From the sequence record PX915677.1: a stretch of DNA of 64,000 bases; one strand, given 5' to 3'. Source of the DNA: a phage. The notes below the pieces were generated by a model. The model was not told the origin of the DNA, did not search any database, and saw nothing but the letters and a program-made list of their open reading frames with translations. Both the position numbers and the translations under genes were made by a program. Positions 24,304-55,224 of this stretch are shown here, in pieces (the first letter of the stretch is position 1; every line of letters begins with the position of its first letter).

Positions 24304-25115
24304 TCTCTATCCAACCATGTCCAATCAAATAAATCTTCCGGAGTTTGACCAACAAAGAGCAGCCGAGCATTCTCAAGCATCTTCTCTTCATCTTCAGTAT
24401 CGAACTTCTTATAATATTCCATTCGTACTATATGATACATGGTCCACTTATCTGTAACATCAGCTAGTAATTTAGCTGCTGCCTTCTTCCCTATACCTTG
24501 ACGTCGAAGCTGAAGCTTACCACCCCACATAACCTCTTTACGTTCCCCACATCCGGGGATATTATCCGTACCGTCTCCAATCAACATTTGATAGAAGAAG
24601 TTTTGCCATGAGATTAAATCAGATACGTAGTGAGGGGGAACCTCTTTCTGCCTTTCTCCACAAGCCCAGCGATAATGCCATCCGGGAGTTATCAACAAAT
24701 CCTTGTCTCTAGTACAGATGATAGTATTCTTATCCCTACGTTGTCTTTCAGCTAGTGCATCATCAGCTTCTCTCCCAAAGACCTCAATGTATTCGTACTT
24801 GGCTTTAATGTAATCACCAACGTTTTGCCAGTGAAAAGGTCTTTCTCCGGGAGGTCTGTTTGCCTTGTAATCTTGCTGCTTAGCAACATCAAAACGGAAG
24901 TTACCACCTTCGCTGAAGTAGAACACAACCTTACTGCAACCTGAGCGAGCAATGATTGTATCTATCTTGTACTGAAGTCGTTCAATCATGAAATTGTAAT
25001 CAACTGGAACACGTCCTGTGTCAAGAAAGGGATGCTCCTGAGTAAGAGCACCCACTTCATATCGAAGAACGTCAGCATCCACTATAGCAACTTCAGGGAG
25101 CTTAACTTCTTCCAT
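24297..25115 (-). CDS. 5'-3' exonuclease / flap endonuclease
   Basis: GREADDALA and IGDGTDNIPG motifs of the FEN/Pol I 5' nuclease family; start at MEEVKL with SD aggatga. Confidence 0.7.
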   Translation of the reverse strand: MEEVKLPEVAIVDADVLRYEVGALTQEHPFLDTGRVPVDYNFMIERLQYKIDTIIARSGCSKVVFYFSEGGNFRFDVAKQQDYKANRPPGERPFHWQNVGDYIKAKYEYIEVFGREADDALAERQRRDKNTIICTRDKDLLITPGWHYRWACGERQKEVPPHYVSDLISWQNFFYQMLIGDGTDNIPGCGERKEVMWGGKLQLRRQGIGKKAAAKLLADVTDKWTMYHIVRMEYYKKFDTEDEEKMLENARLLFVGQTPEDLFDWTWLDREW

Positions 25116-25991
25116 AAATATCATCCTGAGCTTGAGCAATAATCCAATCTAGATCTGAGACTGCTGATTCGATGGTTGAGTCATTAAACAGTAGATATGT
25201 TTTTCTCTGTTCGCCTTCAATATATGAACGAGAGTCTCCATCAAAAGAGCAACCATCTCTAAGAACTTGGACAACTTGGACATGGAAATTCTTTTCTAGT
25301 TCTCGTACCTCTGCATCAAAACCTCCGTCAGTAAACACGACAATATCATCCTGACCTAGCCCTTCTTGTTTGATACTTTTTACAGCAAGATTCCCCATAT
25401 GATTGTTGCCAAACATAGGTTTTAAGAAGTCTTCACTTGTAGAAATCATCAAATCTCTTACAGACTTCCCTCCCCATTCTGGTCTAGGTTTTTCTTTCCA
25501 TTCACGATCTTCATAGCGTGCTAGAAAATTTTCTAGAGGTATTCCTAGTGCAGCAGCAGCTACTCTGTACATTGGCTCCTTGAAGGATTTGGTTGAATAT
25601 CCGTGGTGGTATGAATGGGCATTGACCCAAGCATTGGCTATCGTATCTTTACCACAACCCGGAGGCCCATTAAGAATTACTACTAAAGGCTTATAGTGGG
25701 AATCTCCCACCATATTGGTCAGTGTTGGATTGCCTTGAGATTCCATTTCTAATTGCTCCGTGTGGTCATGTGAGTAATCTACTGGAGAAGTTTTGTTACC
25801 AGTAACTTTAGGTAAAATCGCTCTAGTTGTTTCTACGTACCTACCGCCATCAACATTGATTTGAAACTCTACAAGTTCATTCTGTAATTCATACCCTGAT
25901 AAGTTGGATAGCTCCTCCAACTCATCTCTGACGAAATTTAAATGTTTGATTTTAATTGCAAGAGCTTTCTTTAAAGCTTTTACCTCTTCAT

Positions 25992-25995
<4 letters not shown>
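25102..25995 (-). CDS. P-loop kinase (putative dNMP or polynucleotide kinase)
   Basis: Walker A LNGPPGCGKDT; ATG overlaps upstream stop (ATGA coupling). Confidence 0.4.
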
Positions 25996-27487
<1,492 letters not shown>

Positions 27488-27488
<1 letters not shown>

Positions 27489-39646: not shown

Positions 39647-40210
39647 TTAGTAAGACACGTCACCACTTGAATGGGACATGTTGCTCTTGACGAAGTAGCA
39701 ATACTTGCCAAGACCTTCATTAATTTCTTGAAGCATACTCTGATCGACAGGGTAAGTGGCTAAATCGCCATCAAACTCATCCATCTTCTCAATAATACAC
39801 ATCAAGGTCATGCACATATCAGAGAGCATACCGTCCATGTCTAGATCAGCATTACCCTCTGAGAACCAAGCGTGGGATAGGTAGTTAGCTGCTGTAGCAT
39901 CCACTTTAACACAGTGGTATCGCATACGTTCAGCAATACGATCTCCTACTTGTCGTGCGTAATCTTCCAGCTCATCAAACATACCATGAACACCCTGAAA
40001 TCCTGCACCAGAAACGTTCCAGTGGTAGTTCTTAGCTTTGATATGCAAGAGTTCCATGTTAGCTTGTAAGCAGCTCAGGATGTGTTCTAGGCTGTTTGCA
40101 CTAATCATGCCTTGCATTGTTTCAAGGCGAGAGATTGAAAGCTCAGACCGGTCTAACATACTATAACTGTCACGACCAATCTCAGGTAAATCAAAGACAT
40201 TCTTATGCAT
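39647..40210 (-). CDS. Dps/ferritin-like protein
   Basis: NYHWNVSGAGFQGVHGMFDELEDYARQVGDRIAERM matches the Dps ferroxidase-centre region; start at MHKNVFD with SD ggag. Confidence 0.55.
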   Translation of the reverse strand: MHKNVFDLPEIGRDSYSMLDRSELSISRLETMQGMISANSLEHILSCLQANMELLHIKAKNYHWNVSGAGFQGVHGMFDELEDYARQVGDRIAERMRYHCVKVDATAANYLSHAWFSEGNADLDMDGMLSDMCMTLMCIIEKMDEFDGDLATYPVDQSMLQEINEGLGKYCYFVKSNMSHSSGDVSY

Positions 40211-40532
40211 TTGGGTTTTCTCCATCAAGTTCAACTGAGTTAGCAACATTACGTGCAATATTATCCATTACCTGCTGGGTAATTACGATGCAGTTCTGTG
40301 GGTCTACTGACTTAGAACGCCCCATTTCAGGGTCATACACCTTAACTCGCTTAGCAGTTGAACCTGTGACCTGAAGAACCTTCAACAGATATCCCTGATT
40401 ACCAATAGACCAAGCAACAACATCACGATTCTTGATAAAGCGACCAAGCATATCACGATGATAAAACTGTTGCATCACCTTGGATTTTGTAATCTCTTCA
40501 GTGGGCGGGGCCACTTTACTCAAATCTAACAT
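40203..40532 (-). CDS. hypothetical protein
   Basis: 109-aa ORF. Confidence 0.4.
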   Translation of the reverse strand: MLDLSKVAPPTEEITKSKVMQQFYHRDMLGRFIKNRDVVAWSIGNQGYLLKVLQVTGSTAKRVKVYDPEMGRSKSVDPQNCIVITQQVMDNIARNVANSVELDGENPNA

Positions 40533-41763: not shown

Positions 41764-43077
41764 TTAGTTATTTTCGTCTATTTCAAAAGAGATTCCACGA
41801 CCCGCTTCATCGGCAAACCGAACTGTACGGGTTTGAGGCTGCAACACTTCAGGGTTGTTGGCAACAAATTGATCAGCGAGACTATCTCCCAAATCCTGTT
41901 CCATATCTTCATCAGTCCACACAGCCCTAACAGGTGCGTTGATATCACCAACAGCGAAACCCTGACCAGAGAACTGACGTGCGCTAACAGTTAAGCCGTT
42001 TGGTCGACCACGAGAGGGTCTAGCCATCCATCGCTCCATAGAATCACTTGTAATACCAAGAGCTTCTTCAAAAGATGTTCTACGAGTAGGGCTTTCTCTT
42101 CGTGACTCTTGTGCTCGACGCATTGCAGGGGCTACAAACACCCCTTCAATTGCATTGTGTCGGTTAGGTTCCTCTTCTCGACCAAGCAGATCACCACCCG
42201 TGTTAGTCGTTAAATTTGTCAACCCCTCAGACCAATACGCATGAATCTGACCAGAACCGTGAAGACTAGACATAATCTGAATCTCTTCATAAGGGATTCC
42301 AAAGAATCGACTCATGTCTCGGTTAACACAATATAGAGCACTTGTTGTATCTTCAATAAGAGAAACCTGACCTAATCCATTGACTAGATGACTAACTGGC
42401 TGAGGTGTGGGAAGATATCGAGTTTGGGCCATGTATTGATGCGCAACTGCTGGAGAGGAAAATCTCAACACTTGTGAGTTAGGCCACTTCTTGTGAACAT
42501 ACCTGATTTCACGACTAGAAACAACCACTGGACAAGGGGAAGTCATAGCCAAATATCCGTGAGAAGTCATGAATAAGTTGTCAAGAGTCATCGCACCACG
42601 GCACATCATAGGAAAATTATCCAATACCTCTTCAATAGAAGTAGGATAATTAAACATGAATTGGATACGAACCCCATTCCACTGAAACTCAATAATATCA
42701 GTGAATGTTAATTGAGAACCCCCAGCATAGGATTCGTTTGTAGCTTCAGCAAGAAGTGATGCATATTCAATATCTTGTGACTCTAGCCATTCCTTCACAT
42801 TACTTTCAATCTCCCGTCCAAGCTCTTGCCAACGATCAGTTGGGATGAAAGTGTTTTGAGTTCTTGGTGTTTGTCCTCTGACAATAAAGATATCAATGTC
42901 ATGTGGAGCTATGTTATTAAGGACAGCATCACGAACAGCCCCACCAGTAATGATGGGACAGATACCATCTGGAATCAAGTTGTTGTTAATCAACTGTTCA
43001 ATGAAGTGACGACCAACAGTGATATCAGGTTGTTGAGCAACCTTATCTTCAATTTGGTTAATCGGGATAACAATCAT
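41764..43077 (-). CDS. nucleotidyltransferase with CCA-adding/poly(A) polymerase-type head domain
   Basis: PIITGGAVRDAVLNNIAPHDIDIFIV closely matches the GGxVRD...DxD class-II tRNA nucleotidyltransferase motif; start at MIVIPINQ one nt after the exonuclease stop. Confidence 0.55.
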   Translation of the reverse strand: MIVIPINQIEDKVAQQPDITVGRHFIEQLINNNLIPDGICPIITGGAVRDAVLNNIAPHDIDIFIVRGQTPRTQNTFIPTDRWQELGREIESNVKEWLESQDIEYASLLAEATNESYAGGSQLTFTDIIEFQWNGVRIQFMFNYPTSIEEVLDNFPMMCRGAMTLDNLFMTSHGYLAMTSPCPVVVSSREIRYVHKKWPNSQVLRFSSPAVAHQYMAQTRYLPTPQPVSHLVNGLGQVSLIEDTTSALYCVNRDMSRFFGIPYEEIQIMSSLHGSGQIHAYWSEGLTNLTTNTGGDLLGREEEPNRHNAIEGVFVAPAMRRAQESRRESPTRRTSFEEALGITSDSMERWMARPSRGRPNGLTVSARQFSGQGFAVGDINAPVRAVWTDEDMEQDLGDSLADQFVANNPEVLQPQTRTVRFADEAGRGISFEIDENN

Positions 43078-43078
43078 T

Positions 43079-43636
43079 TTACATTTTCCAATATAATGAA
43101 GGTGGGTCGTAAGGGTCAAATCCCGTGAGTTCACACAAGAAAAGATAAACCTTAACAGTCAAGTTAACGTCCTGTTCACAATAAGTAAACATATCTTCAG
43201 TGAAAGCATCCCATGCTTCCTCTTGCTCACCGTAGTCACCTTTAAGTTCCTCTAAGAACTCACCCCATTGCTTCAAGCCGTGACCTCTTGGGCCACGTCT
43301 AGGGTCGCCTTTCGGATACTCAGGACTGTCGCCAATACGGTCAGGTTTAAGATATCGACTAAGACATAAAGTGTCAAAGACGTTAAAATTATATTTAATC
43401 AAAGAGGGATACATCTTCTTCAGAGCAGGTAAGTCGAAGTCAATAATATTATGACCCACTAGTACATCTGCTTCTGTCAGTTTACGAATCCCGTCTTCAA
43501 TTTGGTGAGGCCGATAGCCCCACCTTTCACCAGTTTCAACATCGAAGATATAAATACACCATACTTTAGTTATGTCATCGTACAGTGCATTACTCTCGAT
43601 ATCGAATGCAAACACTTTCTTCTTTTTCTTTACCAC
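43079..43636 (-). CDS. DnaQ-like 3'-5' exonuclease (stand-alone proofreading domain)
   Basis: Exo I FAFDIES, Exo [13 protein letters not shown], Exo III YCEQDV. Confidence 0.7.
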
Positions 43637-45420
43637 GGTGAAGCTCCATCTGCTTGGTTGACGAGAGAAGCTGCATCCTCTCCGTTAGTTAAAACGAATG
43701 GATTATCTTCATCAACTTCAAAGTCTTCCCTTTCTACAAGTCTACCGGTTTCGCTGATATACTTAGTATAACAGACACCTGTCTGACCGTAGTTACGTTC
43801 TTTCAGTAATCGAATGACTGAGAGGTTCTTAGCTAAGCCGTCAGCTTGCTTATCACGCTCAAAGCCAATGATACACTGACACCAACGCATAAGAGAACGA
43901 GAGCCAGTGAACTGTACTTCACGTACCTGTCCACCTTCTTCATGAGGAGCACCACCTGCCGGAGCATTAAGGTGAGATAACACGAAAGCGGTAAAGTCTA
44001 ATTCTTTACACATACCAGCAAGCTCGGAAGCAATCTTACTGATTTCAGTGTTAATCTCTGAAGGTGTTAAATGAGATACCAGAGCGGTAATGTTATCAAG
44101 GATGATGAACTTACACTGGTTTTCAACTACCCAGAAACGGATACACTGTTTAATGTCTTCCCATTCATTCTGTCCGAAGTTGTCATACAAGAAGAATTTG
44201 TCTGCATAACGAAGTGCTTCATTACGCAAATCTTCCTCGTCATATTCAACATCAGGTCGGTGGAAAGGAATTGATGCTGACTTACCAGCAATGTTCTTAA
44301 CAGACATGCCTACCTTCTCTTCCAAGAAGAAGCCACCTCCATTAAAACCATGCTCTAAGCACAGATGAGCAACCAGCTCGTGAGCAATGAGTGTTTTACC
44401 ACTCCCTACTCCACCACCAATTGCTACCACCTCTCCCCATCGAATACCGAAGGTCATCTCATTCAGAGTCTTCCACGGATACGGGATACCCCACTCCGCT
44501 TTCTTCAGAGCATCATCAAGACAATCAAAGATTGTTACAGCACCAGCAGGAGATTCCCGCTTTGCTGAATACTTGAGAATGTTGAATAACTCTTGACCAC
44601 GACCAGACAGAAGCATGTCATTCGCATCCTTAATCTCTTTCTCCACACCGTTGTATGGGAAGGTTCCTTTAGGAATACGAGCAAACTTGACATGAGGGAA
44701 TAAAGAACGACCTTTTGTTAAAGCTATCTCACCTGCATCATCGTTGTCCATGCAGAGCACAACCTCCTCAAAACCATTTACGAAGTCTCGGTTACGAGAC
44801 AACACAGAAGAGATTGAACCTGCACCGAACGGTAAAGAAACACATGCTGGTTTAATGTTTGTTGCATTTGTAAAAGCTGTAAGGACATGGAAACCTGACA
44901 TACAGGATAGCGGGTCTTCAAAAATGAAGAGCTTCTTGTTGTACACATCTCCACGTTGAGCTTGTGCCATACCAAACAAATCTGCTTCTTTCACACTGCC
45001 GACGTAATAGAACTTCTTACTATCTAGCAGCTTAACCTCGTACCCGACAATGTTTCCATCACGTTCACGAGGAAAGAAGTAACTGTCTGGTGTCTGACCA
45101 TCAGTTTGACTCAGACCAATGCGACACTCAAACCGCTCTGATACAGCTTTAGGGATTAAACGGCGAGTGAGTTCACCCTGAGGAAGCTCTAAGCAATCAT
45201 CTAAGACTTCTCTCAACTCTTCAGGGGATAACTCTTTCTTCTCGTTTGGAGTAGGTGTAGTGCCCTTTTCGAACACTTCGTAATTCCCACAACGGTTACA
45301 ACTTCCCCACTCCTCACCAGTCTCTTCGTTACGGAAGAGAATCATGTGGTTGTGGGTTTTATCACGACCATGAGAGATACATTCCTTACAACCTGTGTCT
45401 CCCAAAATGATCTTTGACAT
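43630..45420 (-). CDS. DNA primase/helicase (T7 gp4-like)
   Basis: N-terminal Cys4 zinc-binding domain, TOPRIM (LCMDNDDAG), DnaB-type Walker [10 protein letters not shown] and Walker B FIILDN. Confidence 0.85.
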
Positions 45421-45446: not shown

Positions 45447-45650
45447 TTAGTAGAACGAACGAATTTCATCCCACACTTGTTCCTGTTCTTTCCTATAAAA
45501 AGAAAGTTGGGTCTTGAACATCTCCACTGATGATTCAAAGTTTTTGGTTTGTGCAGCTTCAACGAAACGTTCATGTCGGTTGATTTTGCACCGTAGCATT
45601 AAATACTTGGCTTCAAGTCTCCGAAGAGCCTGCCTTTTCTCAAGATTCAC
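45447..45650 (-). CDS. hypothetical protein
   Basis: 67-aa ORF. Confidence 0.35.
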   Translation of the reverse strand: MNLEKRQALRRLEAKYLMLRCKINRHERFVEAAQTKNFESSVEMFKTQLSFYRKEQEQVWDEIRSFY

Positions 45651-46059
45651 TTTTCAGATACTCTGACCAGTCGCCAGATTCAACCAGAACATCTTGTTCT
45701 TCGTCGATGTGATAAATCCAAGCGATAACAGTTTCACCTGAGTCCATCTTAACAGCAATCTGAGTACGCTGATAGAAGCTGTCTTCAGGGCTACGTTTGT
45801 TGTAACCTTCCAGACGGTCATACGGACCTTCCAGACCTGCTTTGTCAGTAGCAAACACTTCTACACGAACAGGCTTATTGTTATTGCTGTGTGCGAGAGA
45901 GATGCTCGGGAAGTAGGAACCACCATAACGGAACAGATCAAAGTTGTCTTCAGTCCAACCTTCACCAATCGACTTAGCACCAGCTCGGTCATTAACTAAA
46001 TAGTTAGCTTGACCACGACGAAGAGAACCATAAGTTGCTACGTAAATTACTTCTGACAT
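45640..46059 (-). CDS. gamma-glutamyl cyclotransferase-like (AIG2/GGCT fold) protein
   Basis: N-terminal YVATYGSLRRG motif. Confidence 0.5.
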   Translation of the reverse strand: MSEVIYVATYGSLRRGQANYLVNDRAGAKSIGEGWTEDNFDLFRYGGSYFPSISLAHSNNNKPVRVEVFATDKAGLEGPYDRLEGYNKRSPEDSFYQRTQIAVKMDSGETVIAWIYHIDEEQDVLVESGDWSEYLKSES

Positions 46060-46060
46060 T

Positions 46061-46270
46061 TTAAATACCTTTCCAGTCTTTCATGATGTTTTCAATGTAA
46101 GCACACTGCTGATCAGTGGCTCCTGTTACAAACACTTCTAACCCCAACTGCTCACAGAAGGGATTAAGAATCAATATTCTGGTTTGCCCATACGAGTGAT
46201 GCTCTCGGTAGATAACACACCCAGCATCCCATACAGAATCAATGGCTTTACTCAATCTTTCATGTTTCAT
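46061..46270 (-). CDS. hypothetical protein
   Basis: 69-aa ORF in ligase operon. Confidence 0.35.
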   Translation of the reverse strand: MKHERLSKAIDSVWDAGCVIYREHHSYGQTRILILNPFCEQLGLEVFVTGATDQQCAYIENIMKDWKGI

Positions 46271-46323
46271 AAAACCTCCAGCTTATCCGAACTAGCCTCC
46301 TCTTTCGAAGAGGCTAAAGCAGA

Positions 46324-46509
46324 TTACTCTGTAATAAAGATTTTGATTACACCACAGATTGCTGCACTCTCAAATACTGCAACAGCTTCACTCCCCTGAA
46401 AGAAGGCCACTTTGCCGTCAGAGAAGTTAAACATGTCAGCATCTAGGTCCATAGCTCGCATATCACCAGCGTCGTTAGTATCTTTAAACAGAACTTTATA
46501 CTTATTCAC
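46324..46509 (-). CDS. hypothetical protein
   Basis: 61-aa ORF in ligase operon. Confidence 0.3.
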   Translation of the reverse strand: MNKYKVLFKDTNDAGDMRAMDLDADMFNFSDGKVAFFQGSEAVAVFESAAICGVIKIFITE

Positions 46510-46754
46510 AGATAGGTCACTCCTTTGTCTTGTTGTGCTTCAGAGATGATACGTTCTACACATTCCATAGAATACTTATCACCACGTTTCAGGAAAGTTA
46601 CAATTGCAGAGAATTGATTACCAATCATTCGCTGATTAGTAATACCCCACTCCTCACACAACTTACGCAACTCTTTACGAGAGCCTACAATCAGAGGCTC
46701 TTTTTGTTCCATCATTCCATTTTGTACTAGATCTTCCAATGAAAACATATCCAT
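46506..46754 (-). CDS. hypothetical protein
   Basis: 82-aa ORF in ligase operon. Confidence 0.35.
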   Translation of the reverse strand: MDMFSLEDLVQNGMMEQKEPLIVGSRKELRKLCEEWGITNQRMIGNQFSAIVTFLKRGDKYSMECVERIISEAQQDKGVTYL

Positions 46755-46760
46755 ATATCC

Positions 46761-47963
46761 TTAGTAGTTTACAACAGTGCCATCGTTCAGGGTAAGGCTA
46801 TTAATCTGCAACACACGACCAAGCTGACGATCACTAATTGGTGCGTTCCATCCAGAGCGGTAGAAGTTACGACCACAGAAGAACAAGATCACATTACTTG
46901 CTACAGTCGAACCGTTTTCAGGATGCTTGATGTTAGCGATATAATAACCACGACGCAGATTACGACGGGTTACTGGGTTGATCTCTAACCCTTGCTCTTC
47001 AACTTGCATTGTTTCAGGAACAGGTTCCGAAGATTCTTCAGCAACTGGCTCGGAGCTTTCCCCTGATAGTGCGTAATCCTCATCACCTGCTGGTGAAAAT
47101 GTTTCTTCTACTTCTTCCACAGGAAGTTCGTATGCAACACGATAGTCAGGCTCAACACCAGAGAAGCTCTTAACAAACTCAACGATGTTGTGAGTGTAAG
47201 TTTCCAGAGTTGTTCCAGTCAGTCCCGGAGCTGTGTTAACTTCCAGAACCCAAGCGTTAGTATTTTTACTAATCAGGTCAACAGCACCAAAGTTCAAACC
47301 CAGAGCAGATACAGCTTTGTGAGCTTGAATCAGAACTTGATCAGGAGGCGCGTCAGTGAAGGCGTTAGAATAAACCCAACCAGTATGATGGTTACGAATA
47401 TCTTCACGATAGGTTGACAGATCGCGGTAACCGTTACGACGAATCTTCTTCTGAACGTAAGTGATAACACCTTCGAACACATGAACACGCCATTCACGAC
47501 GTGGGCCTTGGATGCCTTTGGTGTACAGAGGAGCATCCGCAACACCTTCTCGCGCAAGACGAACAGTAATACCTTCTCCAGAGTGACCAGTTAAGGTTCC
47601 ACGTTCATAAACAATTTCATTCCGGTTCCAGTTCTGAGCTACTTCACGATCGACGGTGTATTCAACAGTTTTGACTTCAGCTAAACGCAGTGCGTTAAAT
47701 GCTGCAACTTTGTTAGCCGCTCGGTTCAAGGCAACCACAGAGTTCAACACAGTTGCGCCACCGAAGAAAGCATCATTGTATCGACGGTTTCCGTAGTTGA
47801 CAACAATATCACCAACACGAGAACGGTAACGAGAACCCTCTGATACCAGAGACATTACGTTAGCATTTAAGCGAAGTTCCTGAATCTTAGTGTTAATTGC
47901 AGAAGTAAGTTCACGAACTGAATCAGAAGGGCCATAAGGAAGAACACGGATACGAGTAGTCAT
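46761..47963 (-). CDS. ATP-grasp family ligase
   Basis: C-terminal AVDLISKNTNAWVLEVNTAPGL typical of ATP-grasp (RimK-like) enzymes; acidic Glu/Ser-rich C-terminal tail. Confidence 0.6.
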   Translation of the reverse strand: MTTRIRVLPYGPSDSVRELTSAINTKIQELRLNANVMSLVSEGSRYRSRVGDIVVNYGNRRYNDAFFGGATVLNSVVALNRAANKVAAFNALRLAEVKTVEYTVDREVAQNWNRNEIVYERGTLTGHSGEGITVRLAREGVADAPLYTKGIQGPRREWRVHVFEGVITYVQKKIRRNGYRDLSTYREDIRNHHTGWVYSNAFTDAPPDQVLIQAHKAVSALGLNFGAVDLISKNTNAWVLEVNTAPGLTGTTLETYTHNIVEFVKSFSGVEPDYRVAYELPVEEVEETFSPAGDEDYALSGESSEPVAEESSEPVPETMQVEEQGLEINPVTRRNLRRGYYIANIKHPENGSTVASNVILFFCGRNFYRSGWNAPISDRQLGRVLQINSLTLNDGTVVNY

Positions 47964-47965
47964 TG

Positions 47966-48190
47966 TTAGATACCTTTAAGTTTAAGAATTTCGTTACGAG
48001 TTTTTTGAATCTGAGCTTCAATTTCGAAGTAGTCATTGAACGCATCGTTCTCTACTTCATCGGATGGTGCATCAATCAGACCGAAAGCGAACGGATACAG
48101 CTTTCGCTGCTCCGTTACTAATTCGATATGAACTCCTATGTAATACTGTAGGAGAGTAATCTTCGGTTTCTTAGGAACCAGATTTGACAT
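47966..48190 (-). CDS. hypothetical protein
   Basis: 74-aa ORF. Confidence 0.3.
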   Translation of the reverse strand: MSNLVPKKPKITLLQYYIGVHIELVTEQRKLYPFAFGLIDAPSDEVENDAFNDYFEIEAQIQKTRNEILKLKGI

Positions 48191-48404
48191 GAGGTTCTAC
48201 CTTAATGCCTTTGATTTTTACATAATCAGCAAGCACGTTGTTGATCACTGTTGGGAAAGGAACCTCAACCTGTGTTTCAAGTACTTGACCAATACCAGCT
48301 TGCATCCACTTTTGGATTGCACGAAGGTTATCACATCCTGTGCTCGTCATCGGGATACGTCGAGTAGTTACAACGTTATCCAGCATCATCTTACGAATTT
48401 CCAT
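48171..48404 (-). CDS. hypothetical protein
   Basis: 77-aa ORF. Confidence 0.3.
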   Translation of the reverse strand: MEIRKMMLDNVVTTRRIPMTSTGCDNLRAIQKWMQAGIGQVLETQVEVPFPTVINNVLADYVKIKGIKVEPHVKSGS

Positions 48405-48406
48405 AC

Positions 48407-50437
48407 TTAACCTCTATTCAATGAACATTTAGGAGAATTACAATAAACTTGATTCATAGAACCAAGCGTACAACTTTCAGCATCGCGCCACGGAATCTGC
48501 TTAAAACACTCTGAGCAGTATCCGAGGGTTGACCACATGGCTTTGGTGAAGTCAGTGCTTCGGTTTCCGTCGAAGCTGACAACAGTTTTTCGGAGAGCTG
48601 TTCGTGATTCAGGAAACACACCTGCTTTCTCAGCAGGTTCCTCCTTTTTTGGCTTAGTTGAGATTGCAAAAATACTGTTGCTACGTTTCTCAACATAAGC
48701 ATCAACAACATCCTCCAGAGTGATGCCTGTCTGTTTCGCTGATGAAGGTAATATAGTCATACGACCAATCATTTCTTCAGTTACACGTAAAGCAAACTCG
48801 GGACGACGGGCGTTTGTTGTATCTGTTGCTTTAATCCATACATAACCATCTTTGATCGTAGCATTAGATACTTTCTTCTTTACTTCTACAGCGCAGACTT
48901 TACAGATATCTTCACCACGAAGACGACTAAGTTCATCATCGAACTCATTCTCTGTTTTAACTTCACCACAGATTTCACAAACACCAATAGGAGTTTCCTC
49001 CTCTTCTTCCTCTTTAGGTTTAGTCAAACCTTCCAGACATTCAGGATGCCAATAGCACTGATATGCGAAGACTGCTTTAGGTGCATCCTTCCAATCAATG
49101 TGTTTGTCACAACCACCACAATCACCATGAGAGTGTGCTTCCCAGAATTTACGAGTGATAGTAACGCCGTTCTTGTTGACGAAACTATCATTCATATCAA
49201 AAGGGATATCATCATCGAAGTCAGCAGTAGTTGACTCAGGCTCCTTTTTCTCCAGAGATGGGTCAACAAAACGACCTGCTGTGATCACTAAGCGAACCAT
49301 AGCATTAACTTCGGAGATGCAGGATACTGTCCCACGGTAAACAATTTTAGGGTCTTTCAGGGCATCCTGATAAGCCTTAATGTCTACGTTATGAACATCA
49401 CCTTCGATGTACTCTTGAGACTTCTCATCGTAGATATAACCAATCATCTTACCACGAGAAGGAACAGCACCAGCAGTTGCATAAGGAACAAACTCATGTG
49501 GTGTGATTTCCACAGTCATATCGCGGCGAATATCAATGTTTCGATCGCTTGCGATTTTGTTTTGACTTACCACTGCGTTTCTTCGACGAACGTCTGCCGC
49601 TGTCACTCCTGGCTTCGTGTCGTAAGGATTGCTTGTACTGCTTTTTGAGGAACTTTGATAGTTGCTTTGGCTGTAGTTGTTCGAGTAGTAACTGGCCCAA
49701 CGATTGACTACCGTAAAAACCGGAAGCTCGTGGGCGACCTCTTCAACCAGAGTCATACTGTTGTTTGACATATCAAAGATATATTCTGTACCAACTTTAC
49801 ATTCAAAATGCTCGTCAATACGATTCTTATGAGACTTAGAACGCTTCAGAATCCACATCAACATATCTTCTTCAGAAGCACCAAACCAATCTCTGTTACA
49901 ACGTGCGAGGTGGAATGGACGCTCTTCGTTACGGATGATATGAAGACGGTTATCAGAAGCATCATGCCAGATTAAAGTGAAAGCACCATCCAGCTTTTGA
50001 ATAGTCTCTGCTGCACCAATAGTGTTAATAGAGTGGCAGATGTTCTCACTGTCTACCTCGAAGTTTTTGCTGTCAGGTAACAGATCTTGGTCCATCAAGG
50101 TTCCGTTATGAACCAGAGTGATGTTACCATGTTGGAAAGGATGGGCGTTCTTGGCGTTAACTGCACCTTTCGTTGCATGACGGCTGTGACCAACAATCCA
50201 TGAAGGTGCTACAGTGTAAGCTGTTTCACCAGTGGTGTGCTTCTTGTACTCATCTTGTAGGATGAATGCGAAAGAAGGAAGAGCTTCTTTATAAGTGAAG
50301 ACTTCCTTAGTGCTTTTACGCTGACCAAAGATACCGGAGGAATGTTGTCCTCGGAATACTCCAGCATAAAAGAGTTGGTTAAATACGTCTAAATCAGTGC
50401 TTGACAGATTACCGCCAGCTAATACGATGCCACAAAT
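48407..50437 (-). CDS. class-II (Ntn) glutamine amidotransferase domain protein with Cys-rich C-terminal region; apparent ATT start
   Basis: Frame open from stop 50441-43; N-terminus ?CGIVLAGG, HSRHATKG and LVHNGTL motifs; no ATG/GTG/TTG before codon 114; SD aggtgg 8 nt upstream of ATT-TGT; multiple CxxC pairs C-terminally. Confidence 0.6.
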   Translation of the reverse strand: MCGIVLAGGNLSSTDLDVFNQLFYAGVFRGQHSSGIFGQRKSTKEVFTYKEALPSFAFILQDEYKKHTTGETAYTVAPSWIVGHSRHATKGAVNAKNAHPFQHGNITLVHNGTLMDQDLLPDSKNFEVDSENICHSINTIGAAETIQKLDGAFTLIWHDASDNRLHIIRNEERPFHLARCNRDWFGASEEDMLMWILKRSKSHKNRIDEHFECKVGTEYIFDMSNNSMTLVEEVAHELPVFTVVNRWASYYSNNYSQSNYQSSSKSSTSNPYDTKPGVTAADVRRRNAVVSQNKIASDRNIDIRRDMTVEITPHEFVPYATAGAVPSRGKMIGYIYDEKSQEYIEGDVHNVDIKAYQDALKDPKIVYRGTVSCISEVNAMVRLVITAGRFVDPSLEKKEPESTTADFDDDIPFDMNDSFVNKNGVTITRKFWEAHSHGDCGGCDKHIDWKDAPKAVFAYQCYWHPECLEGLTKPKEEEEEETPIGVCEICGEVKTENEFDDELSRLRGEDICKVCAVEVKKKVSNATIKDGYVWIKATDTTNARRPEFALRVTEEMIGRMTILPSSAKQTGITLEDVVDAYVEKRSNSIFAISTKPKKEEPAEKAGVFPESRTALRKTVVSFDGNRSTDFTKAMWSTLGYCSECFKQIPWRDAESCTLGSMNQVYCNSPKCSLNRG

Positions 50438-50516
50438 TTTCTAATCCACCTGAAGGGTAAACCCTTTCATCTAATTAACCTTTAAATTGTGCCCCTTTAT
50501 CAGAGGCACCCATTGA

Positions 50517-51620
50517 TTACAGCGCTTGCTCTAACTGATTTTCCAGATGGTCTGGAATGTACCCTGTGATATTGCTATCACTGTGACCTGACTCACGTAG
50601 TAAGTCAAAAATAGCACGGATACGCTGTTCTGGAGCGTGTCTTACTTGAGATAGGTCTGCTGTACGAAGCATAACCAGAATCTCTTGGTACAAATTGTTA
50701 GCGTTCCCTCGGACATATCCAAGGAATCCGTAGAAGTCTGACATATGACGTAAGTCAACAAGAACATCTCCGTTGGAGTTAGTTCTACGTAAACGAATAC
50801 GACCAGACTGTTCTACTTCATGAGAACGGCAATACAAAACATCACGGGCCATACAATACCCTGAATGCAAATCAGATTCATCCAGATTGTAATCCAGAGG
50901 AAGATAAGGAAGCATTGGGGCGAATCGTACAGTATTTAAATGCTCAACAAACTGATCGTTGCTCATATCTGCGTTATCTAAAGCCAGCTTCTTCAACATC
51001 AAGAAGCGGTTAACCAGATTGAGAAGTTGACCACGTTTCCACTTAGGCTCGCTGATACGGAACTCAATCGAACCGTATTGGGCAAGTGGCAGAAGGTTCA
51101 GGGATGTATACTTATCCCATGAACGAACCAGACGGTTGAAGAACTCTTCACCATCGTAGTTAAATGCGTCAGAGGCATTCATTACCTGTGCTTGTACCAC
51201 TGCAAACGCAGGGCAGAAATTGCTACGGTAACGATGGTAGCCTGAGCACTTGAACAACATCTTTTCGTAGAAGGTCCAAGCGAGAATGGTTTTCTTGAGG
51301 ATATTACTATCAGCATCCCTCATATCCATATGAACGTGAGTAGAGCAACGCCAAGTCCCCTCGGCGTGCGATTCAGCTACTGCTTCACTCAGGTTGTTGA
51401 TAGCGTCTAACAACTCCTGTCCGTTGTAAGGTCGTGAACATACCATTTCACAACCGTTACGCAGGGAACCATCCTCTGTACAATCCCACATATCTGCTTC
51501 GATATGATCGGAACCTTCGAGTTCAAGTTCAATACCGACACCGCACTGAAGTGCAATTGAACTATGCGCCTCAGTTAAACGACCTTCTCGATATCCAAAA
51601 GTTTGCGCTACAGTTGTCAT
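50517..51620 (-). CDS. glutamine-synthetase-like amidoligase (carboxylate-amine ligase)
   Basis: GIELELEG, GSLRNG and GSIEFR motifs. Confidence 0.5.
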   Translation of the reverse strand: MTTVAQTFGYREGRLTEAHSSIALQCGVGIELELEGSDHIEADMWDCTEDGSLRNGCEMVCSRPYNGQELLDAINNLSEAVAESHAEGTWRCSTHVHMDMRDADSNILKKTILAWTFYEKMLFKCSGYHRYRSNFCPAFAVVQAQVMNASDAFNYDGEEFFNRLVRSWDKYTSLNLLPLAQYGSIEFRISEPKWKRGQLLNLVNRFLMLKKLALDNADMSNDQFVEHLNTVRFAPMLPYLPLDYNLDESDLHSGYCMARDVLYCRSHEVEQSGRIRLRRTNSNGDVLVDLRHMSDFYGFLGYVRGNANNLYQEILVMLRTADLSQVRHAPEQRIRAIFDLLRESGHSDSNITGYIPDHLENQLEQAL

Positions 51621-52234
51621 AACGAATCCACCAACGTAATATTATAATTGCTAAGGTTTTCAGAGATGTGATGAAAATGCTCCAGAAGTCGCATCGGTTG
51701 TTGACCGTAAGAGTCACGAGGTGCTTCCAGATCTACTTGTCCCACCAGTGCACCTTTATAATGCACTTTACCATCTGTAGGATTGATGTAAATATAACGA
51801 GTAACCAATCCATCAAATTCAGGATTGAACAGACTGTAAACCATTTCACCAGAGATCGAACGACCAATTCCCGGAGCGTTTCGAATCTTGTTACCCATCA
51901 AACCCTTCGCTCTCTGACGAACAGGGTTGATATGAGTCCAGCTTACAGTGTTACCGTTATGGAACAGATAACCAACATCAGGTGATTCGAGAATCAAGGT
52001 TGGGTCGAACACTGGAATATTCATCGTAGTGTTTCGGAGATTCCCATGCTCGTTCTTGTACCACTGCTCTACAACAAAATACAGAGCCTGTTCTGCTTCA
52101 TGCGAGAAGTCATCGCTGCGGAAGTTACCGCTCTGCTCAACACCAATCACAAAACACGGAAGGTTGATATTGCCTGCTCGTTTAGCAATCCATGTACCAT
52201 TATAGTAATGAGAAAAATCAGCTACTAAGCTCAC
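51617..52234 (-). CDS. hypothetical protein (ligase operon)
   Basis: 205-aa ORF coupled to flanking genes. Confidence 0.4.
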   Translation of the reverse strand: MSLVADFSHYYNGTWIAKRAGNINLPCFVIGVEQSGNFRSDDFSHEAEQALYFVVEQWYKNEHGNLRNTTMNIPVFDPTLILESPDVGYLFHNGNTVSWTHINPVRQRAKGLMGNKIRNAPGIGRSISGEMVYSLFNPEFDGLVTRYIYINPTDGKVHYKGALVGQVDLEAPRDSYGQQPMRLLEHFHHISENLSNYNITLVDSL

Positions 52235-52243
52235 GATAACCTC

Positions 52244-53050
52244 TTATGCTACCTGAAGGAGTTTGATCTGCTGGTCAGCTTCTTTAACGTTGTTCCCGTT
52301 AATGATTTCATGAAGCTTCTCAATCGGAAGGCGAGAGTGCAATGCCATCAGGGTGGACATATCACACTGCTGAACAACCTTGTCAACCTGATCGTAAACA
52401 AACTTACGGTTTTCACGATCACTAATCCAGAAGTTAGACAGAGAACGGTATTCAATACCATAGTCTTTATAACGGATTGCAGATGCTTTACCGTAGAGTT
52501 CTTTACGGCGAGTATCTTTGTCCATAATTACTGCTGGGAGAGACAGGAAGTAGTCACACAACACACCCAGCATCATCTGAGTTTGCAGAGTGATATCCAA
52601 AGCACCAACTACGCCAAGATGTACGTGACCACCGGCAGTACGAAGTCCCTTATTCTGAGAAGTCGGGGATGGGTTTTTCTGACCAGTGAAGGCGTTGAAA
52701 TCAGGAGTGCACCCGAAGATGAACGCTGATTCGTTAAAGGTCTTCATCTCTTCTTCAGTGAAGATGTGAGAGCTAACACCCGGAGCTGTTTCCATGTCCA
52801 GTTTGTTCAGGACATTATTGGTGAGATCAATACCACGTTGCATGTTATCGTTAAACGCTTCAAAACCGCTCTGTGGGTCAATATCAAACTCAGCCAGTAC
52901 GTTGTCCTCTTGGAGACGAACATCCTTAGCCAGAGCGATCTTATCGTCCTTAGAGCAGCCTAATAAACCGGCTACAGAAGTGATGATACCATTGCTAGTA
53001 CGAACGAACATTTCAGGGTCAGAGCCGATGAGGAATTTGCGCTTAGTCAT
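52244..53050 (-). CDS. amidoligase-like protein, paralog
   Basis: IGSDPE, GGHVHLG and GIEYR motifs parallel to 50517..51620. Confidence 0.4.
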   Translation of the reverse strand: MTKRKFLIGSDPEMFVRTSNGIITSVAGLLGCSKDDKIALAKDVRLQEDNVLAEFDIDPQSGFEAFNDNMQRGIDLTNNVLNKLDMETAPGVSSHIFTEEEMKTFNESAFIFGCTPDFNAFTGQKNPSPTSQNKGLRTAGGHVHLGVVGALDITLQTQMMLGVLCDYFLSLPAVIMDKDTRRKELYGKASAIRYKDYGIEYRSLSNFWISDRENRKFVYDQVDKVVQQCDMSTLMALHSRLPIEKLHEIINGNNVKEADQQIKLLQVA

Positions 53051-54014
53051 TGTAATACTCCACTAGTTCAGAAAAGAGAGATGAGATTGTGTTACCAACT
53101 TCTTCAAGAGTAAGACCGGAATCTGCTCCAGTTCTTTGAATCAGTCGGGATGTAAAGTTTTGTACTGTAATGTTTCCCAACTTGTCGTCTATTGATTCAC
53201 GTTTGTGACCATAGCAGTTGGACCAGAGTCTTAACCACTCTGACATTGTTTCATACTCGTCCGGGTCTTGATCTTTAGCACGAGCAAATCTTCGTAAGGC
53301 ATCTTGGTTATGGTTACGAACATAACCATTCTCGTTGTCGCCAACACCGAAGGGGTTTTGAACCCATACTTGCTTCGTATATTCATCAGAGTCTACAACC
53401 AAAGGAAGGAAAGCTGCTGCTGACATATTGTTGTTAATAACAATAGAGGTGCTCTCGCTACTCCCATTGGCTCTTCCTCGTTGAGACCACCCACCGAAGA
53501 AGTCACGACCCAACCCAGCTAACACTAGAGCGATGCCGATGCGTTTACGCTTCAGCCACTCTTCCCTGTCTTCAATTCCTTCTGCTAGGAAATCCATTCC
53601 ACGATATTGCCCTTCCAGAATACTACGGAAGAGCATAAGTCCTGTGAAGATCTGATCTGCTGGATGCTCACGAAGATTGACAGCAACACTGTTCGCTGAA
53701 GTGATAGTAAATACATCACGATAGCAAGACATAGAATTCATAATGTCTGCTGTTTCAATCAAGTTCTTTTCAATATCAGATGGAACATGACCATGAAAAG
53801 AGTGGGTCCAGTAATTCAACATCTCCAATTGCAAGTTAATGTCACGGTTGAAGCGTTTATGGCGCCCATCTTCCATTACACATTCGTCATTAACATCATA
53901 TACGACTTGACCTTGCATGTAGTTGTGGATACCGAAGCACCCACGACCTAAGAACTTCTGTTCCCCTAAATCCTGTTGAAGATTAAGAGGTACGATCGTT
54001 GTGGAGATTGACAT
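53043..54014 (-). CDS. hypothetical protein (ligase operon)
   Basis: 323-aa ORF. Confidence 0.4.
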   Translation of the reverse strand: MSISTTIVPLNLQQDLGEQKFLGRGCFGIHNYMQGQVVYDVNDECVMEDGRHKRFNRDINLQLEMLNYWTHSFHGHVPSDIEKNLIETADIMNSMSCYRDVFTITSANSVAVNLREHPADQIFTGLMLFRSILEGQYRGMDFLAEGIEDREEWLKRKRIGIALVLAGLGRDFFGGWSQRGRANGSSESTSIVINNNMSAAAFLPLVVDSDEYTKQVWVQNPFGVGDNENGYVRNHNQDALRRFARAKDQDPDEYETMSEWLRLWSNCYGHKRESIDDKLGNITVQNFTSRLIQRTGADSGLTLEEVGNTISSLFSELVEYYND

Positions 54015-54024
54015 AACTAACCTT

Positions 54025-55224
54025 TTATTTTCCTAAAAATAATCCGCTCATAATACCATCCCACTCAGAGGACGGAATCACTGAATACTCCGAACTTTGG
54101 TCCAGAGTTCCACTACTAAATCGCTGAATGATGTTGTAGATGTTGAACAGGTCTTTAGCCTCGGCACGAATGCCGTAGATTAACCTGTTAGCTGTTTTCT
54201 CATTTTTAGACACGCGACGGGTAAAGTTAACCAAAAGATTATCACCTTTAAGTGTCTCTGACCCGTCTTTTACTAGATCGGGGTGCATCACTGGCAAGAA
54301 CATTGAGTTGTTAACTCGCAATTCTGCTGTTTCGTCGTTCTCATAATGAATCCACTTAAAGTCTTCATCACGGAAGTGACCGCATCCATCTCTGTATGAC
54401 TGTTGACGCCAAGGAACTTGAAATGCTTCAGCGTATTTATCAGCCATGCCGACTGTAAACAACGACGCTGGGAAGATACAAGCATCCCAATCATTACCAA
54501 CCAGAGTTGCTTTCGTTTCACCTAAGAGGTTAGTGTAAGTGCTAACCATTCGGGAATAAACGTAAGCCTGAAGGATTGTCCAGCCTTCAACCAACCATTT
54601 ATGGAGGAAGGTTTCAACTTGACTCTCTTCATCTTCACAATAGAAGGTTCGGTCTAACATCAAATAGAACAGACAACGATCAGCAGGGATGTTCTCAGTT
54701 GCTACCCCCATAAAACCTTTATCGTGCCAGCGTAAACAGGAGGGACGATCTTTGTCCACAAATGCTTCCATAGCTTCCAGTACAGCACGAGGTGTGGTTC
54801 GATGTTCAGGGTTTTTGTCGTTCCAACGTTCGATGTTATTCTTGGGAGGTGTGTCTTCATCTTCATACGAACACCAACTTAAAGCTTCAGCTACATGCTT
54901 TTCATCACGCCAACGTCTAAAACCTAACATCTTCATATGAGTTCCAGAGTTCCAGATATGCTTGATTTTACACATATCCATCTCTCGGCTTAACAAGAAC
55001 TCTTCTCCGTCAGCGCTACGAACGTTGGCTTCTTCATGCCACACTCGAACGTGCATATTCCATCCATGAGTTGCCTCATACATGTTAGGGTCGAAGTAGT
55101 CATCATCTTCGTCATCGTTTTCATCAACGCCACCATTATAGTTGCGAAGTTGAAGGAATCCATAACAAGGAGGACTAACCGTTAAAACATTACCTTCAGT
55201 ATCTTCTAATGTTACTGGAAACAT
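54025..55224 (-). CDS. hypothetical protein (ligase operon)
   Basis: 399-aa ORF, acidic DENDDEDDD segment. Confidence 0.4.
   Translation of the reverse strand: MFPVTLEDTEGNVLTVSPPCYGFLQLRNYNGGVDENDDEDDDYFDPNMYEATHGWNMHVRVWHEEANVRSADGEEFLLSREMDMCKIKHIWNSGTHMKMLGFRRWRDEKHVAEALSWCSYEDEDTPPKNNIERWNDKNPEHRTTPRAVLEAMEAFVDKDRPSCLRWHDKGFMGVATENIPADRCLFYLMLDRTFYCEDEESQVETFLHKWLVEGWTILQAYVYSRMVSTYTNLLGETKATLVGNDWDACIFPASLFTVGMADKYAEAFQVPWRQQSYRDGCGHFRDEDFKWIHYENDETAELRVNNSMFLPVMHPDLVKDGSETLKGDNLLVNFTRRVSKNEKTANRLIYGIRAEAKDLFNIYNIIQRFSSGTLDQSSEYSVIPSSEWDGIMSGLFLGK

Follow-up and report, generated by a model that had tools for sequence, protein, structure and literature searches.

What does a phage make with three amide-bond-forming ligases, a glutamine amidotransferase and a gamma-glutamyl cyclotransferase (GGCT) encoded together beside its replication genes? 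The question is raised by a 9.6-kb block at positions 45640-55224, minus strand, of a 64,000-nt stretch of phage DNA (sequence record PX915677.1) that is referred to here as the window. An initial annotation had read this block as a pathway that builds a glutamyl- or glutaminyl-containing moiety or attaches it to a small molecule, a protein or possibly DNA. We are fairly confident of the chemical logic, which is ATP-driven amide ligation through L-gamma-glutamyl amides, ending in removal of the glutamyl group. The fuller statement is held tentatively, with somewhat less than even confidence: an early-expressed, phage-specific, ATP-dependent amide ligation via L-gamma-glutamyl amides, acting in the cytoplasm on a non-DNA acceptor at the small-molecule or precursor level. 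Four independent families back the glutamyl or glutaminyl chemistry that had been proposed: a class II glutamine amidotransferase (GAT-II) with an intact glutamine pocket, a GGCT, a RimK-like ligase, and a Peptidase_C26 hydrolase that replaces the GGCT in sister cassettes.

Identity and layout of the block

Over its full length the block is 96-97% identical to Escherichia phages EK5, SU10, NJ01 and about 65 others. By sequence, its source is a Kuravirus (Gordonclarkvirinae, phiEco32-like prolate podophages) close to SU10 (96%) and the relatives of phiEco32. The features below are given in the direction of transcription, with the handles used for the genes.

54025-55224, minus strand: X1, 399 aa, without known domain
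53043-54014, minus strand: X2, 323 aa, without known domain; probable distant X1 paralogue
52244-53050, minus strand: lig2, phiEco32-type COOH-NH2 ligase, a carboxylate-amine ligase like glutamine synthetase (GS) and GCS2 (PF14395; PHROG 3815)
51617-52234, minus strand: X3, 205 aa, without known domain, between lig2 and lig1
50517-51620, minus strand: lig1, Amidoligase_2 (GS-like) with a C-terminal extension of about 100 aa (PF12224; PHROG 7469)
50438-50516, minus strand: intergenic spacer, 79 nt, with two hairpins (sequence and fold)
48407-50437, minus strand: Ntn class II glutamine amidotransferase, 676 aa (GATase_6; GATase_7)
48171-48404, minus strand: 77-aa protein directly after the amidotransferase (PHROG 9477)
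47966-48190, minus strand: 74-aa open reading frame (ORF), in Gordonclarkvirinae and close relatives only (locus comparison)
46761-47963, minus strand: ATP-grasp ligase resembling the RimK family, 400 aa (NCBIfam, PDB, PHROG 2599)
46061-46754, minus strand: three small lineage-restricted ORFs (82, 61 and 69 aa) between the ATP-grasp and GGCT genes (locus comparison)
45640-46059, minus strand: GGCT/GGACT-type gamma-glutamyl(amine) cyclotransferase, 139 aa (PF06094)
43630-45420, minus strand: context, T7 gp4-like primase/helicase, conserved downstream neighbour (annotation, related loci)
43079-43636, minus strand: context, DNA polymerase exonuclease subunit, directly downstream (annotation)

The eight reading frames named in the initial annotation all lie where it had placed them on the minus strand, as seen in the ORF list and, for the amidotransferase, by direct translation. 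The motifs GIEYR, GSIEFR and WVLEVNTAPG were found in the translations. The enzyme classes were also correctly named: PF14395, PF12224, GATase_6/7 and GGACT exceed their Pfam gathering scores, and the ATP-grasp assignment is weaker in Pfam but is backed by NCBIfam, PDB and PHROG matches. Block genes overlap by 4-20 nt or are separated by 1-11 nt, except for gaps of 79 nt ahead of the amidotransferase gene and 53 nt ahead of the 69-aa ORF. Such short junctions are compatible with the co-transcription and translational coupling claimed for a contiguous block.

The block is already known; it is the founding or type example of a phage cassette published in 2009 and 2013, and Pfam PF14395 carries the name "Phage phiEco32-like COOH.NH2 ligase-type 2". 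Papers that cite Iyer et al. 2009 (Mol Biosyst) and Hardies et al. 2013 (J Virol) describe a "peptidoglycan modification cassette" of seven genes, shared by RIO-1, phiEco32, 7-11, PA11, tf, LUZ24, PaP3 and CW02, which would alter the cell wall against superinfection or ready it for lysis. The phiEco32/RIO-1 cassette (Iyer et al. 2009; Hardies et al. 2013; Duhaime et al. 2017) has the same genes, namely PF14395, PF12224, GAT-II, ATP-grasp and AIG2/GGCT, in the same early-region place by the primase/helicase. The window likewise has PF14395 and PF12224 together with GAT-II, ATP-grasp and AIG2/GGCT in a co-directional podophage early block, and the same enzyme set was found in 7-11, PaP3-like and Zobellviridae phages. 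The comparative-genomic accounts to which the initial annotation had referred do exist, and, as it had said, the literature holds no defined product; no experimental work on the product, target or phenotype of the cassette was found there.

The new elements are the exchange of GGCT for Peptidase_C26, the X1/X2 and X3 families (the X1 fold being unmatched), an apparent restriction to viruses, and an ATT start of the amidotransferase gene. Accounts citing the 2009 and 2013 papers, as far as they reproduce these, do not mention X1, X2, X3, the C26-for-GGCT exchange or the ATT start.

In SU10 the counterpart of the block is gp078-gp090. RefSeq labels its products gamma-glutamyl cyclotransferase, "ribosomal protein S6 glutaminyl transferase", "L-glutamine-D-fructose-6-phosphate aminotransferase", amidoligase, COOH.NH2 ligase and hypotheticals. 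Mass spectrometry of SU10 detected the homologues of the ATP-grasp protein, the amidotransferase and the GGCT along with the gp86 protein; the cassette genes belong to the early region driven by sigma-70. The cassette occupies 9.6 kb of a genome of about 77 kb, or about 7.9 kb of a 44-kb PaP3-like genome (12-18% of genomes), a share too costly for a dispensable moron. None of the eight cassette proteins matched the PADLOC models of anti-phage defence systems.

The three ligases

lig2 matched PF14395 (COOH-NH2_lig) in Pfam at E 2.3e-8, with 34 bits against a gathering score of 25, and lig1 matched PF12224 (Amidoligase_2) at E 5.3e-8 (33.5 bits against 22). Over six phage lineages lig2 residues D11, E13, E54, C114, H142, H144, R182, K195, E200 and R202 are invariant, and so are the GS/GCS2-type motifs D-P-E, E54, G-G-H-x-H and Y-G-x-E-x-R (6 sequences). 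In lig1 the elements G-x-E-x-E-x-E, DGSLR, S-x-H-x-H, E119, R130, K-Y and G-x-x-E-x-R are invariant over ten sequences. Judged by these alignments, strong divergence has left both proteins with the acidic strand residues of GS/GCS2-type carboxylate-amine ligases and with their E-x-R motif. A PDB sequence search with lig1 gave no match.

The ATP-grasp protein was placed with more difficulty. Its matches were Pfam RimK at E 9.6e-4 (19.2 bits, under the cut-off of 21), NCBIfam MptN at 6.7e-8 (31.9 bits against a cut-off of 350) and the NCBIfam RimK family TIGR00768 at 2.8e-7 (30.2 against 143). It also matched RimK-type alpha-L-glutamate ligases in a PDB sequence search, and PHROG 2599 at 4e-185. 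As its scores fall below the curated cut-offs, it is described here as an ATP-grasp enzyme apparently related to the RimK family and not as a demonstrated member. The RimK, MptN and CofF alpha-L-glutamate ligases, which are its best-scoring characterised relatives, add L-glutamate to a terminal glutamate carboxylate. The phage protein differs from them in score (30 vs 143 bits) and in having an extra acidic linker and C-terminal domain. A core of about residues 1-265 is followed by the linker and by an extra 82-aa C-terminal domain (residues 319-400, PHROG 20552); in Kuravirus the linker, which with this domain makes up residues 265-400, is strongly acidic (EE/ESSEP repeats). In other phages the 82-aa domain is a free-standing family, and the PaP3-like and marine ATP-grasp orthologues have neither linker nor domain.

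The amidotransferase and its ATT start

The amidotransferase (48407-50437) matched GATase_6 at E 1.1e-14, plus GATase_7, in Pfam. It aligned at E 3e-8 with the N-domain of E. coli GlmS, and in this alignment keeps Cys1, R-G-x-x-S-G, H-x-R-x-A-T-x-G, NAHP, VHNG and D-S-E. Paired with the GlmS sequence, the phage segments read HSRHATKG / HTRWATHG, VHNG in both, and DSE / DTE. By alignment, the enzyme retains the Arg and Asp residues through which the alpha-carboxylate and alpha-amino group of glutamine are bound, as well as the Asn-Gly oxyanion hole. NCBIfam gave a weak EgtC match (2.5e-4) among matches to GlmS, PurF and AsnB, and a PDB sequence search with the N-domain gave none. No Pfam or NCBIfam domain was found in residues ~200-676, and a synthase domain was not recognised there; from gene adjacency, lig1 or lig2 is a plausible ligase partner. 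The C-terminal tail carries three CxxC-type zinc-ribbon-like motifs. The number of CxxC pairs varies from 0 to 3 across lineages, and the tail is absent in marine cassettes. Since the number varies in this way, the tail is an accretion and not part of the core.

The amidotransferase frame is open only from codon AAA at 50440, and a TAG lies two codons upstream of ATT-TGT. Because of this in-frame TAG, and because the essential N-terminal Cys (residue 2) must be kept, the start is the ATT at 50437-50435. This is why a mechanical ORF list gives a truncated 563-aa ORF with a TTG start. A Shine-Dalgarno sequence, AGGTGG, stands 8 nt upstream of the ATT, and SU10 is identical at the site. In other Gordonclarkvirinae loci the ORF caller also found no canonical start for this gene. 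The 7-11-like, PaP3-like and marine orthologues have ATG-TGT starts, and most relatives begin M-C-G. The ATT start may hold translation of the amidotransferase low or regulated. In the preceding spacer (50438-50516) an 8-bp hairpin follows the lig1 stop and a second small hairpin lies beside the Shine-Dalgarno sequence; the predicted fold (-23.9 kcal/mol) is no more stable than shuffled sequence (z-score -0.86), and is not significant alone.

The cyclotransferase and the small ORFs

The GGCT matched PF06094 (GGACT) at E 3.4e-17 (63.6 vs 22.8 bits), with the YGSL loop and the L-E-G-Y glutamate intact. The consensus of its cluster over 49 loci is vavYG.Lr.G ... lD.LEGy.

Homologues of the 77-aa protein (48171-48404) occur in 10 loci, from Kuravirus, 7-11-like and some Pseudomonas phages, and are absent from marine cassettes. 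Its pattern of a short strand and two helices allows the guess that it is a ribbon-helix-helix regulator. A small tag protein like that of Pup/PafA or LysW was also sought among the small ORFs and rejected; the sole one ending in Glu (46324-46509, 61 aa) is restricted to Gordonclarkvirinae, and its terminal residue varies.

Conservation of the cassette in other phages

A scan of IMG/VR with a lig2 profile yielded 389 viral contigs. ORFs were clustered for 80 of them and for five reference loci, 85 in all. lig1 was present in 82/85 loci, the GAT in 80/85 and the ATP-grasp gene in 75/85, and an X3-type gene lay between lig2 and lig1 in at least 57/85. The predominant order was lig2-X3-lig1-GAT-ATP-grasp, usually with the primase/helicase next. 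Conservation of the neighbourhood in related phages, which the initial annotation had named as a check, is borne out by this order, which recurs in most of the ~85 loci.

Salmonella phage 7-11 and the PaP3/LUZ24-like Pseudomonas phages share one order: two unknowns of ~300-380 aa, lig2, an unknown of ~190-200 aa, lig1, GAT, (a small ORF), ATP-grasp, GGCT and primase/helicase. The Zobellviridae (Vibrio 1.208.B, IME180, RIO-1) have a rearranged cassette in which lig2-X3-lig1 is kept.

When 100,044 bacterial and archaeal species genomes were scanned for lig1 with a single peptide pattern, 4 short contigs matched. One comes from a Peptococcaceae metagenome-assembled genome (CALKAR010000070.1, locus L088) and three are scaffolds of Herbiconiux daphne, an actinobacterial isolate assembly (L089-L091); all are very short and Kuravirus-like, with 99% and 44-62% identity to lig1, respectively. 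These are most likely phage contamination or mis-binning and not cellular genes. The lig1 subfamily appears to be virus-specific, within the limited sensitivity of a negative from a one-pattern scan.

Exchange of GGCT and Peptidase_C26

Two types of cassette were distinguished. Type A, to which the window belongs, has the X-family proteins upstream and the GGCT downstream. Type B is without GGCT and has a hydrolase of the Peptidase_C26/class I amidotransferase fold immediately upstream of lig2 (PF07722, E 7.5e-17; G-x-C-R-G-x-Q, S-x-H-H-Q and H-P-E intact). Among the 66 loci with enough flank, 37 had GGCT only, 21 had C26 only, 1 had both and 7 had neither; most of the last are 7-11-like, with the GGCT >9 kb away and past the fetched flank. 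The exclusion has a Fisher p of 2.5e-10, a raw value uncorrected for phylogeny. C26 loci form essentially one clade of the lig1 tree plus IME180, so the exchange represents a few evolutionary events and not 21.

GGCT and C26 are unrelated, and their common known activity is to take an L-gamma-glutamyl group with a free alpha-amino group off an amine. The exchange is read as non-orthologous displacement within the same functional slot, and removal of a free-amino L-gamma-glutamyl group would therefore be obligatory in the pathway. Two IMG/VR contigs (L027 and L085) carry both C26 and GGCT and are possible exchange intermediates; L085 also has two GAT-II genes and an unusual order.

The X1, X2 and X3 proteins

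X1, X2 and X3 had no match in Pfam, NCBIfam or PADLOC. The AlphaFold model of X1 is confident (pLDDT 87, pTM 0.89), and its fold found no PDB match. Its only BFVD matches were uncharacterised proteins encoded by other phages that carry the cassette, both GAP52 paralogues among them, and a search of 1.84 billion proteins with an X1 profile hidden Markov model returned 23 representatives and no fusions. Invariant positions are C20 just before a helix, W91-N-S-G94, the PADR motif (180-183), H283, R285, D286 and D288. From the invariant Cys before a helix and the invariant His and Asp it is conceivable, as a guess, that X1 is a thiol enzyme.

X2 is probably a distant paralogue of X1, to judge from motif register and BFVD matches. 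Common to X1, X2 and the marine Xb cluster are C-[FY]-G close to the N-terminus, N-S, PAD[RQK]..L..R, W.Q and G-x-x-R-[DN]; for X2 the PAD motif and the last motif take the forms PAD[QK] and G-Y-x-R-[ND]. BLASTP and hhalign of X1 against X2 put the PAD..LM..R and W.Q..G.xR regions in register with weak statistics (profile-profile E 0.34), and the marine Xb homologues aligned to X1 at E 4e-4 and to X2 at E 5.5e-3.

In X3 the motifs R-x-x-K-G-L and Y-K-x-x-x-V-G are conserved in every lineage examined, and the marine X3 cluster is homologous to that of Kuravirus (hhalign 97.6%). The AlphaFold model of X3 is of low confidence (pLDDT 57), and only its N-terminal barrel is interpretable. Its position and this model suggest that X3 is probably a non-catalytic adaptor or substrate-presenting subunit.

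A proposed ligation pathway

In the pathway an amine would be carried or protected temporarily by glutamate. In the step order that we infer, lig2 and lig1, held in a complex with the adaptor X3, and the RimK-like ATP-grasp enzyme would each use ATP to activate a carboxylate for amide formation, and at least one of the resulting bonds would be a gamma-glutamyl-amine bond. The Ntn amidotransferase would then either pass glutamine ammonia to one of the ligases, resulting in amidation of a carboxylate, or hydrolyse a gamma-glutamyl amide and hand the amine on. The gamma-glutamyl group, its alpha-amino group free, would be removed last, here by the GGCT with release of 5-oxoproline and in sister cassettes by the Peptidase_C26 hydrolase with release of glutamate. 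What results would be an amide-linked conjugate such as a mono-acylated diamine or polyamine or a short peptide, formed in the cytoplasm; its acceptor would be an abundant amine or carboxylate of the host, not DNA.

Adding and then removing a gamma-glutamyl group has precedents in PuuA/PuuD (GS-like and C26), BtrJ/BtrG (ATP-grasp and GGCT), EgtA/EgtC (GCS-type and GAT-II) and FzmN/FzmA (GS-like and GAT-II). In the Puu/Pau polyamine pathway the amine is masked as a gamma-glutamyl amide, the molecule is processed, and glutamate is removed. Type B sister cassettes resemble it in pairing a GS-like ligase, as PuuA is, with a C26 hydrolase, as PuuD is. The phage cassette differs in having no oxidase or dehydrogenase steps and in having two further ligases and a GAT-II; its ligases belong to the Amidoligase_2 and COOH-NH2_lig families and not to GlnA-type GS, and the window has GGCT, not C26. 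In butirosin synthesis the ATP-grasp enzyme BtrJ installs a gamma-glutamyl protecting group, which the GGCT-fold enzyme BtrG removes as 5-oxoproline after ligation. Both folds are present in the phage block, whereas an acyl carrier protein, a pyridoxal phosphate (PLP) decarboxylase and a BtrH-type transferase were not recognised there. In the EgtA/EgtC and FzmN/FzmA (fosfazinomycin/kinamycin) pairs a gamma-glutamyl amide formed by a GCS/GS-type ligase is later cleaved by an Ntn enzyme of the GAT-II type, the Fzm enzymes passing the amine to a carboxylate. With ergothioneine and fosfazinomycin the likeness is at the superfamily level only, and the phage has no methyltransferase, sulfoxide synthase or phosphonate genes.

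Several points count against this proposal. The literature gives no substrate, product or phenotype for any cassette member. The GGCT/C26 exchange reflects few events, its p-value carries no phylogenetic correction, and C26 might replace X1/X2, or X and GGCT together, rather than GGCT, given that C26 and the X family are also mutually exclusive (31 vs 22 loci, 0 with both). The similarity of the ATP-grasp protein to RimK/MptN is under the curated cut-offs, and the putative role of X3 is drawn from gene position and a low-confidence model. Simple multi-step peptide synthesis would account equally well for three ligases and an ammonia donor, and the GGCT would then be a side activity.

A bolder form of the proposal is doubtful as a whole. 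It would have a gamma-glutamyl-derived product confined to virulent podophages that depend on host RNA polymerase, for instance a carboxylate mono-amidated with a diamine or polyamine via a gamma-glutamyl-protected intermediate. Its synthesis would use X1/X2, a new fold and possibly a thiol enzyme, and X3 as ligase adaptor, both without cellular relatives. The product would modify a host macromolecule or precursor important for infection, as in superinfection exclusion or evasion of host immunity.

The cassette occurs in widespread virulent phages (Kuravirus, 7-11-like, LUZ24/PaP3-like, Zobellviridae and hundreds of marine viral contigs) and since 2009 has carried no more than a bioinformatic label. 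Identifying the product would reveal either a new form of host remodelling, affecting the wall, proteins or polyamines of the cell, or a pathway of a new, natural-product-like kind, and would also give functions to three orphan protein families. The question is testable, as the BASEL collection contains Kuraviruses that plate on K-12 and the GGCT/C26 exchange points to L-gamma-glutamyl amides and 5-oxoproline.

Alternative functions

Modification of peptidoglycan, the interpretation credited to Iyer et al. 2009 and Hardies et al. 2013 by the papers citing them, was published as a hypothesis. The three ligases would build or alter linkages in the murein stem peptide or its cytoplasmic precursor, the GAT and GGCT would trim, and the altered wall would block superinfection or create or weaken endolysin sites. 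The known hosts are all Gram-negative Proteobacteria with the same murein, of the meso-diaminopimelate type, whose stem peptide has three free carboxylates to set beside the three ligases. Glutamine-dependent amidation of murein carboxylates has precedents in MurT/GatD and AsnB1/LtsA. The ATP-grasp protein has weak matches to D-Ala-D-Ala ligase in Pfam, PDB and NCBIfam, but in NCBIfam it is nearer RimK/MptN than Ddl. Pfam and NCBIfam searches of the cassette proteins detected no Mur-ligase, UDP-sugar-binding, lipid II-binding, membrane or secretion feature. The pockets of GGCT, C26 and GAT-II need an L-gamma-glutamyl group with a free alpha-amino group, whereas murein isoglutamate is D and N-acylated. 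We regard modification of peptidoglycan as unlikely.

Slightly less probable again is modification of a protein. Here the RimK-like ligase and the amidoligases would put glutamate or a short peptide on a protein of the host or the phage, be it ribosomal protein S6, a replication protein or X3 itself, and GGCT/C26 and the GAT would edit or reverse the tag. Enzymes of the S6-glutamate ligase type are the closest to the ATP-grasp protein, and the GS-like fold includes the protein ligase PafA. The N-domain of X3 is modelled, with low confidence, as SH3/Tudor-like, typical of peptide- or protein-binding modules. The extremely conserved segment of X3 (R-x-x-K-G-L, Y-K) is unstructured in AlphaFold, as expected if it docks into a partner or is itself modified. 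The zinc-ribbon tail of the amidotransferase could mediate macromolecule binding, but marine cassettes do without it. No conserved small tag protein was found in the cassettes, the sole ORF ending in Glu being lineage-restricted and its Glu unconserved. GGCT-type enzymes are known to act on free gamma-glutamyl amines and peptides, not on proteins.

DNA, which the initial annotation had admitted as a possible target, is disfavoured. A glutamyl- or amine-containing group on phage DNA would account for the resistance of Gordonclarkvirinae to restriction-modification systems, which the BASEL study calls remarkable and for which no modification pathway or other mechanism is known. The window keeps 12 EcoRI, 34 EcoRV, 8 EcoKI and 99 EcoP1 sites, which are not avoided, so that resistance to these four systems does not come from site loss. 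Other sites are avoided in the same 64,000 nt: CCWGG (1 observed vs 87 expected), BamHI (0 vs 10), PstI (0 vs 17), GATC (135 vs 257) and GGCC (43 vs 109). The strong avoidance of CCWGG, BamHI and PstI sites argues that the DNA is exposed to restriction, and virion DNA of a cassette-bearing LUZ24-like phage was cut by 11/16 restriction enzymes. That the cassette sits next to replication genes, as had been noted, is correct, with the primase/helicase and the exonuclease subunit directly downstream; this adjacency is not independent evidence of a DNA function, because it is synteny inherited within one podophage supergroup. Thymidine hypermodification clusters (5-HMUDK, aGPT-Pplase, PLP enzymes; Lee et al. 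2021) are likewise multi-enzyme and near replication genes, and amidoligase and GATase genes sometimes lie beside hypermodification genes in metagenomic viral contigs; the defining enzymes were not detected in the phage block. Pfam and NCBIfam searches found no DNA-binding, glycosylase-like, kinase or base-flipping domain in the block, and ThyX (PF02511, 1.1e-43) with a dCTP deaminase represents ordinary dTMP synthesis with no hydroxymethylase-type pathway. We consider hypermodification of DNA very improbable. A thymidine hypermodification cluster as such was rejected: the thymidylate synthase is ThyX, and no ORF of the block matched the hydroxymethylase, TET/JBP, 5-hmU DNA kinase or aGPT-Pplase families.

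A rewiring of the host gamma-glutamyl cycle or of glutathione and glutamine pools, freeing amino acids and nitrogen for nucleotides, is as improbable as hypermodification of DNA: a GCS-type ligase, an ATP-grasp ligase and a GGCT are formally a set for glutathione synthesis and breakdown, SU10 and RIO-1 have thioredoxin or glutaredoxin genes close by, and some authors list the genes as auxiliary metabolic genes, but such scavenging is hard to square with three ATP-consuming ligases in hosts that already make glutathione, would leave the cassette-specific X1, X2 and X3 (without cellular relatives) no role, and does not agree with the near absence of the lig1 subfamily from the 100,044 cellular species genomes, because of which the genes are not host-derived.

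Other genes of the window

The middle region of the window holds a conflict-type gene run on the minus strand (25102-27488). It comprises a 299-aa P-loop protein annotated as a deoxynucleoside monophosphate (dNMP) kinase, with a weak AAA_18 match only (25102-26001), a SLOG-family YAcAr domain protein (25992-26384), a phage sigma factor (26381-27028) and a macro domain protein (27048-27488). These predicted domains suggest counter-defence related to NAD/ADP-ribose or nucleotides.

Between the dCTP deaminase and the exonuclease subunit, a 456-aa protein (41764-43134, minus strand) has a weak match to the PolyA_pol/CCA-adding head domain (E 2e-3). This protein is the 'nucleotidyltransferase' for which the BASEL authors suspected a role in DNA modification. 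The protein annotated in SU10 as 'DNA binding protein' (39647-40258, minus strand) has a ferritin-like domain match (PF00210, 2.9e-7).

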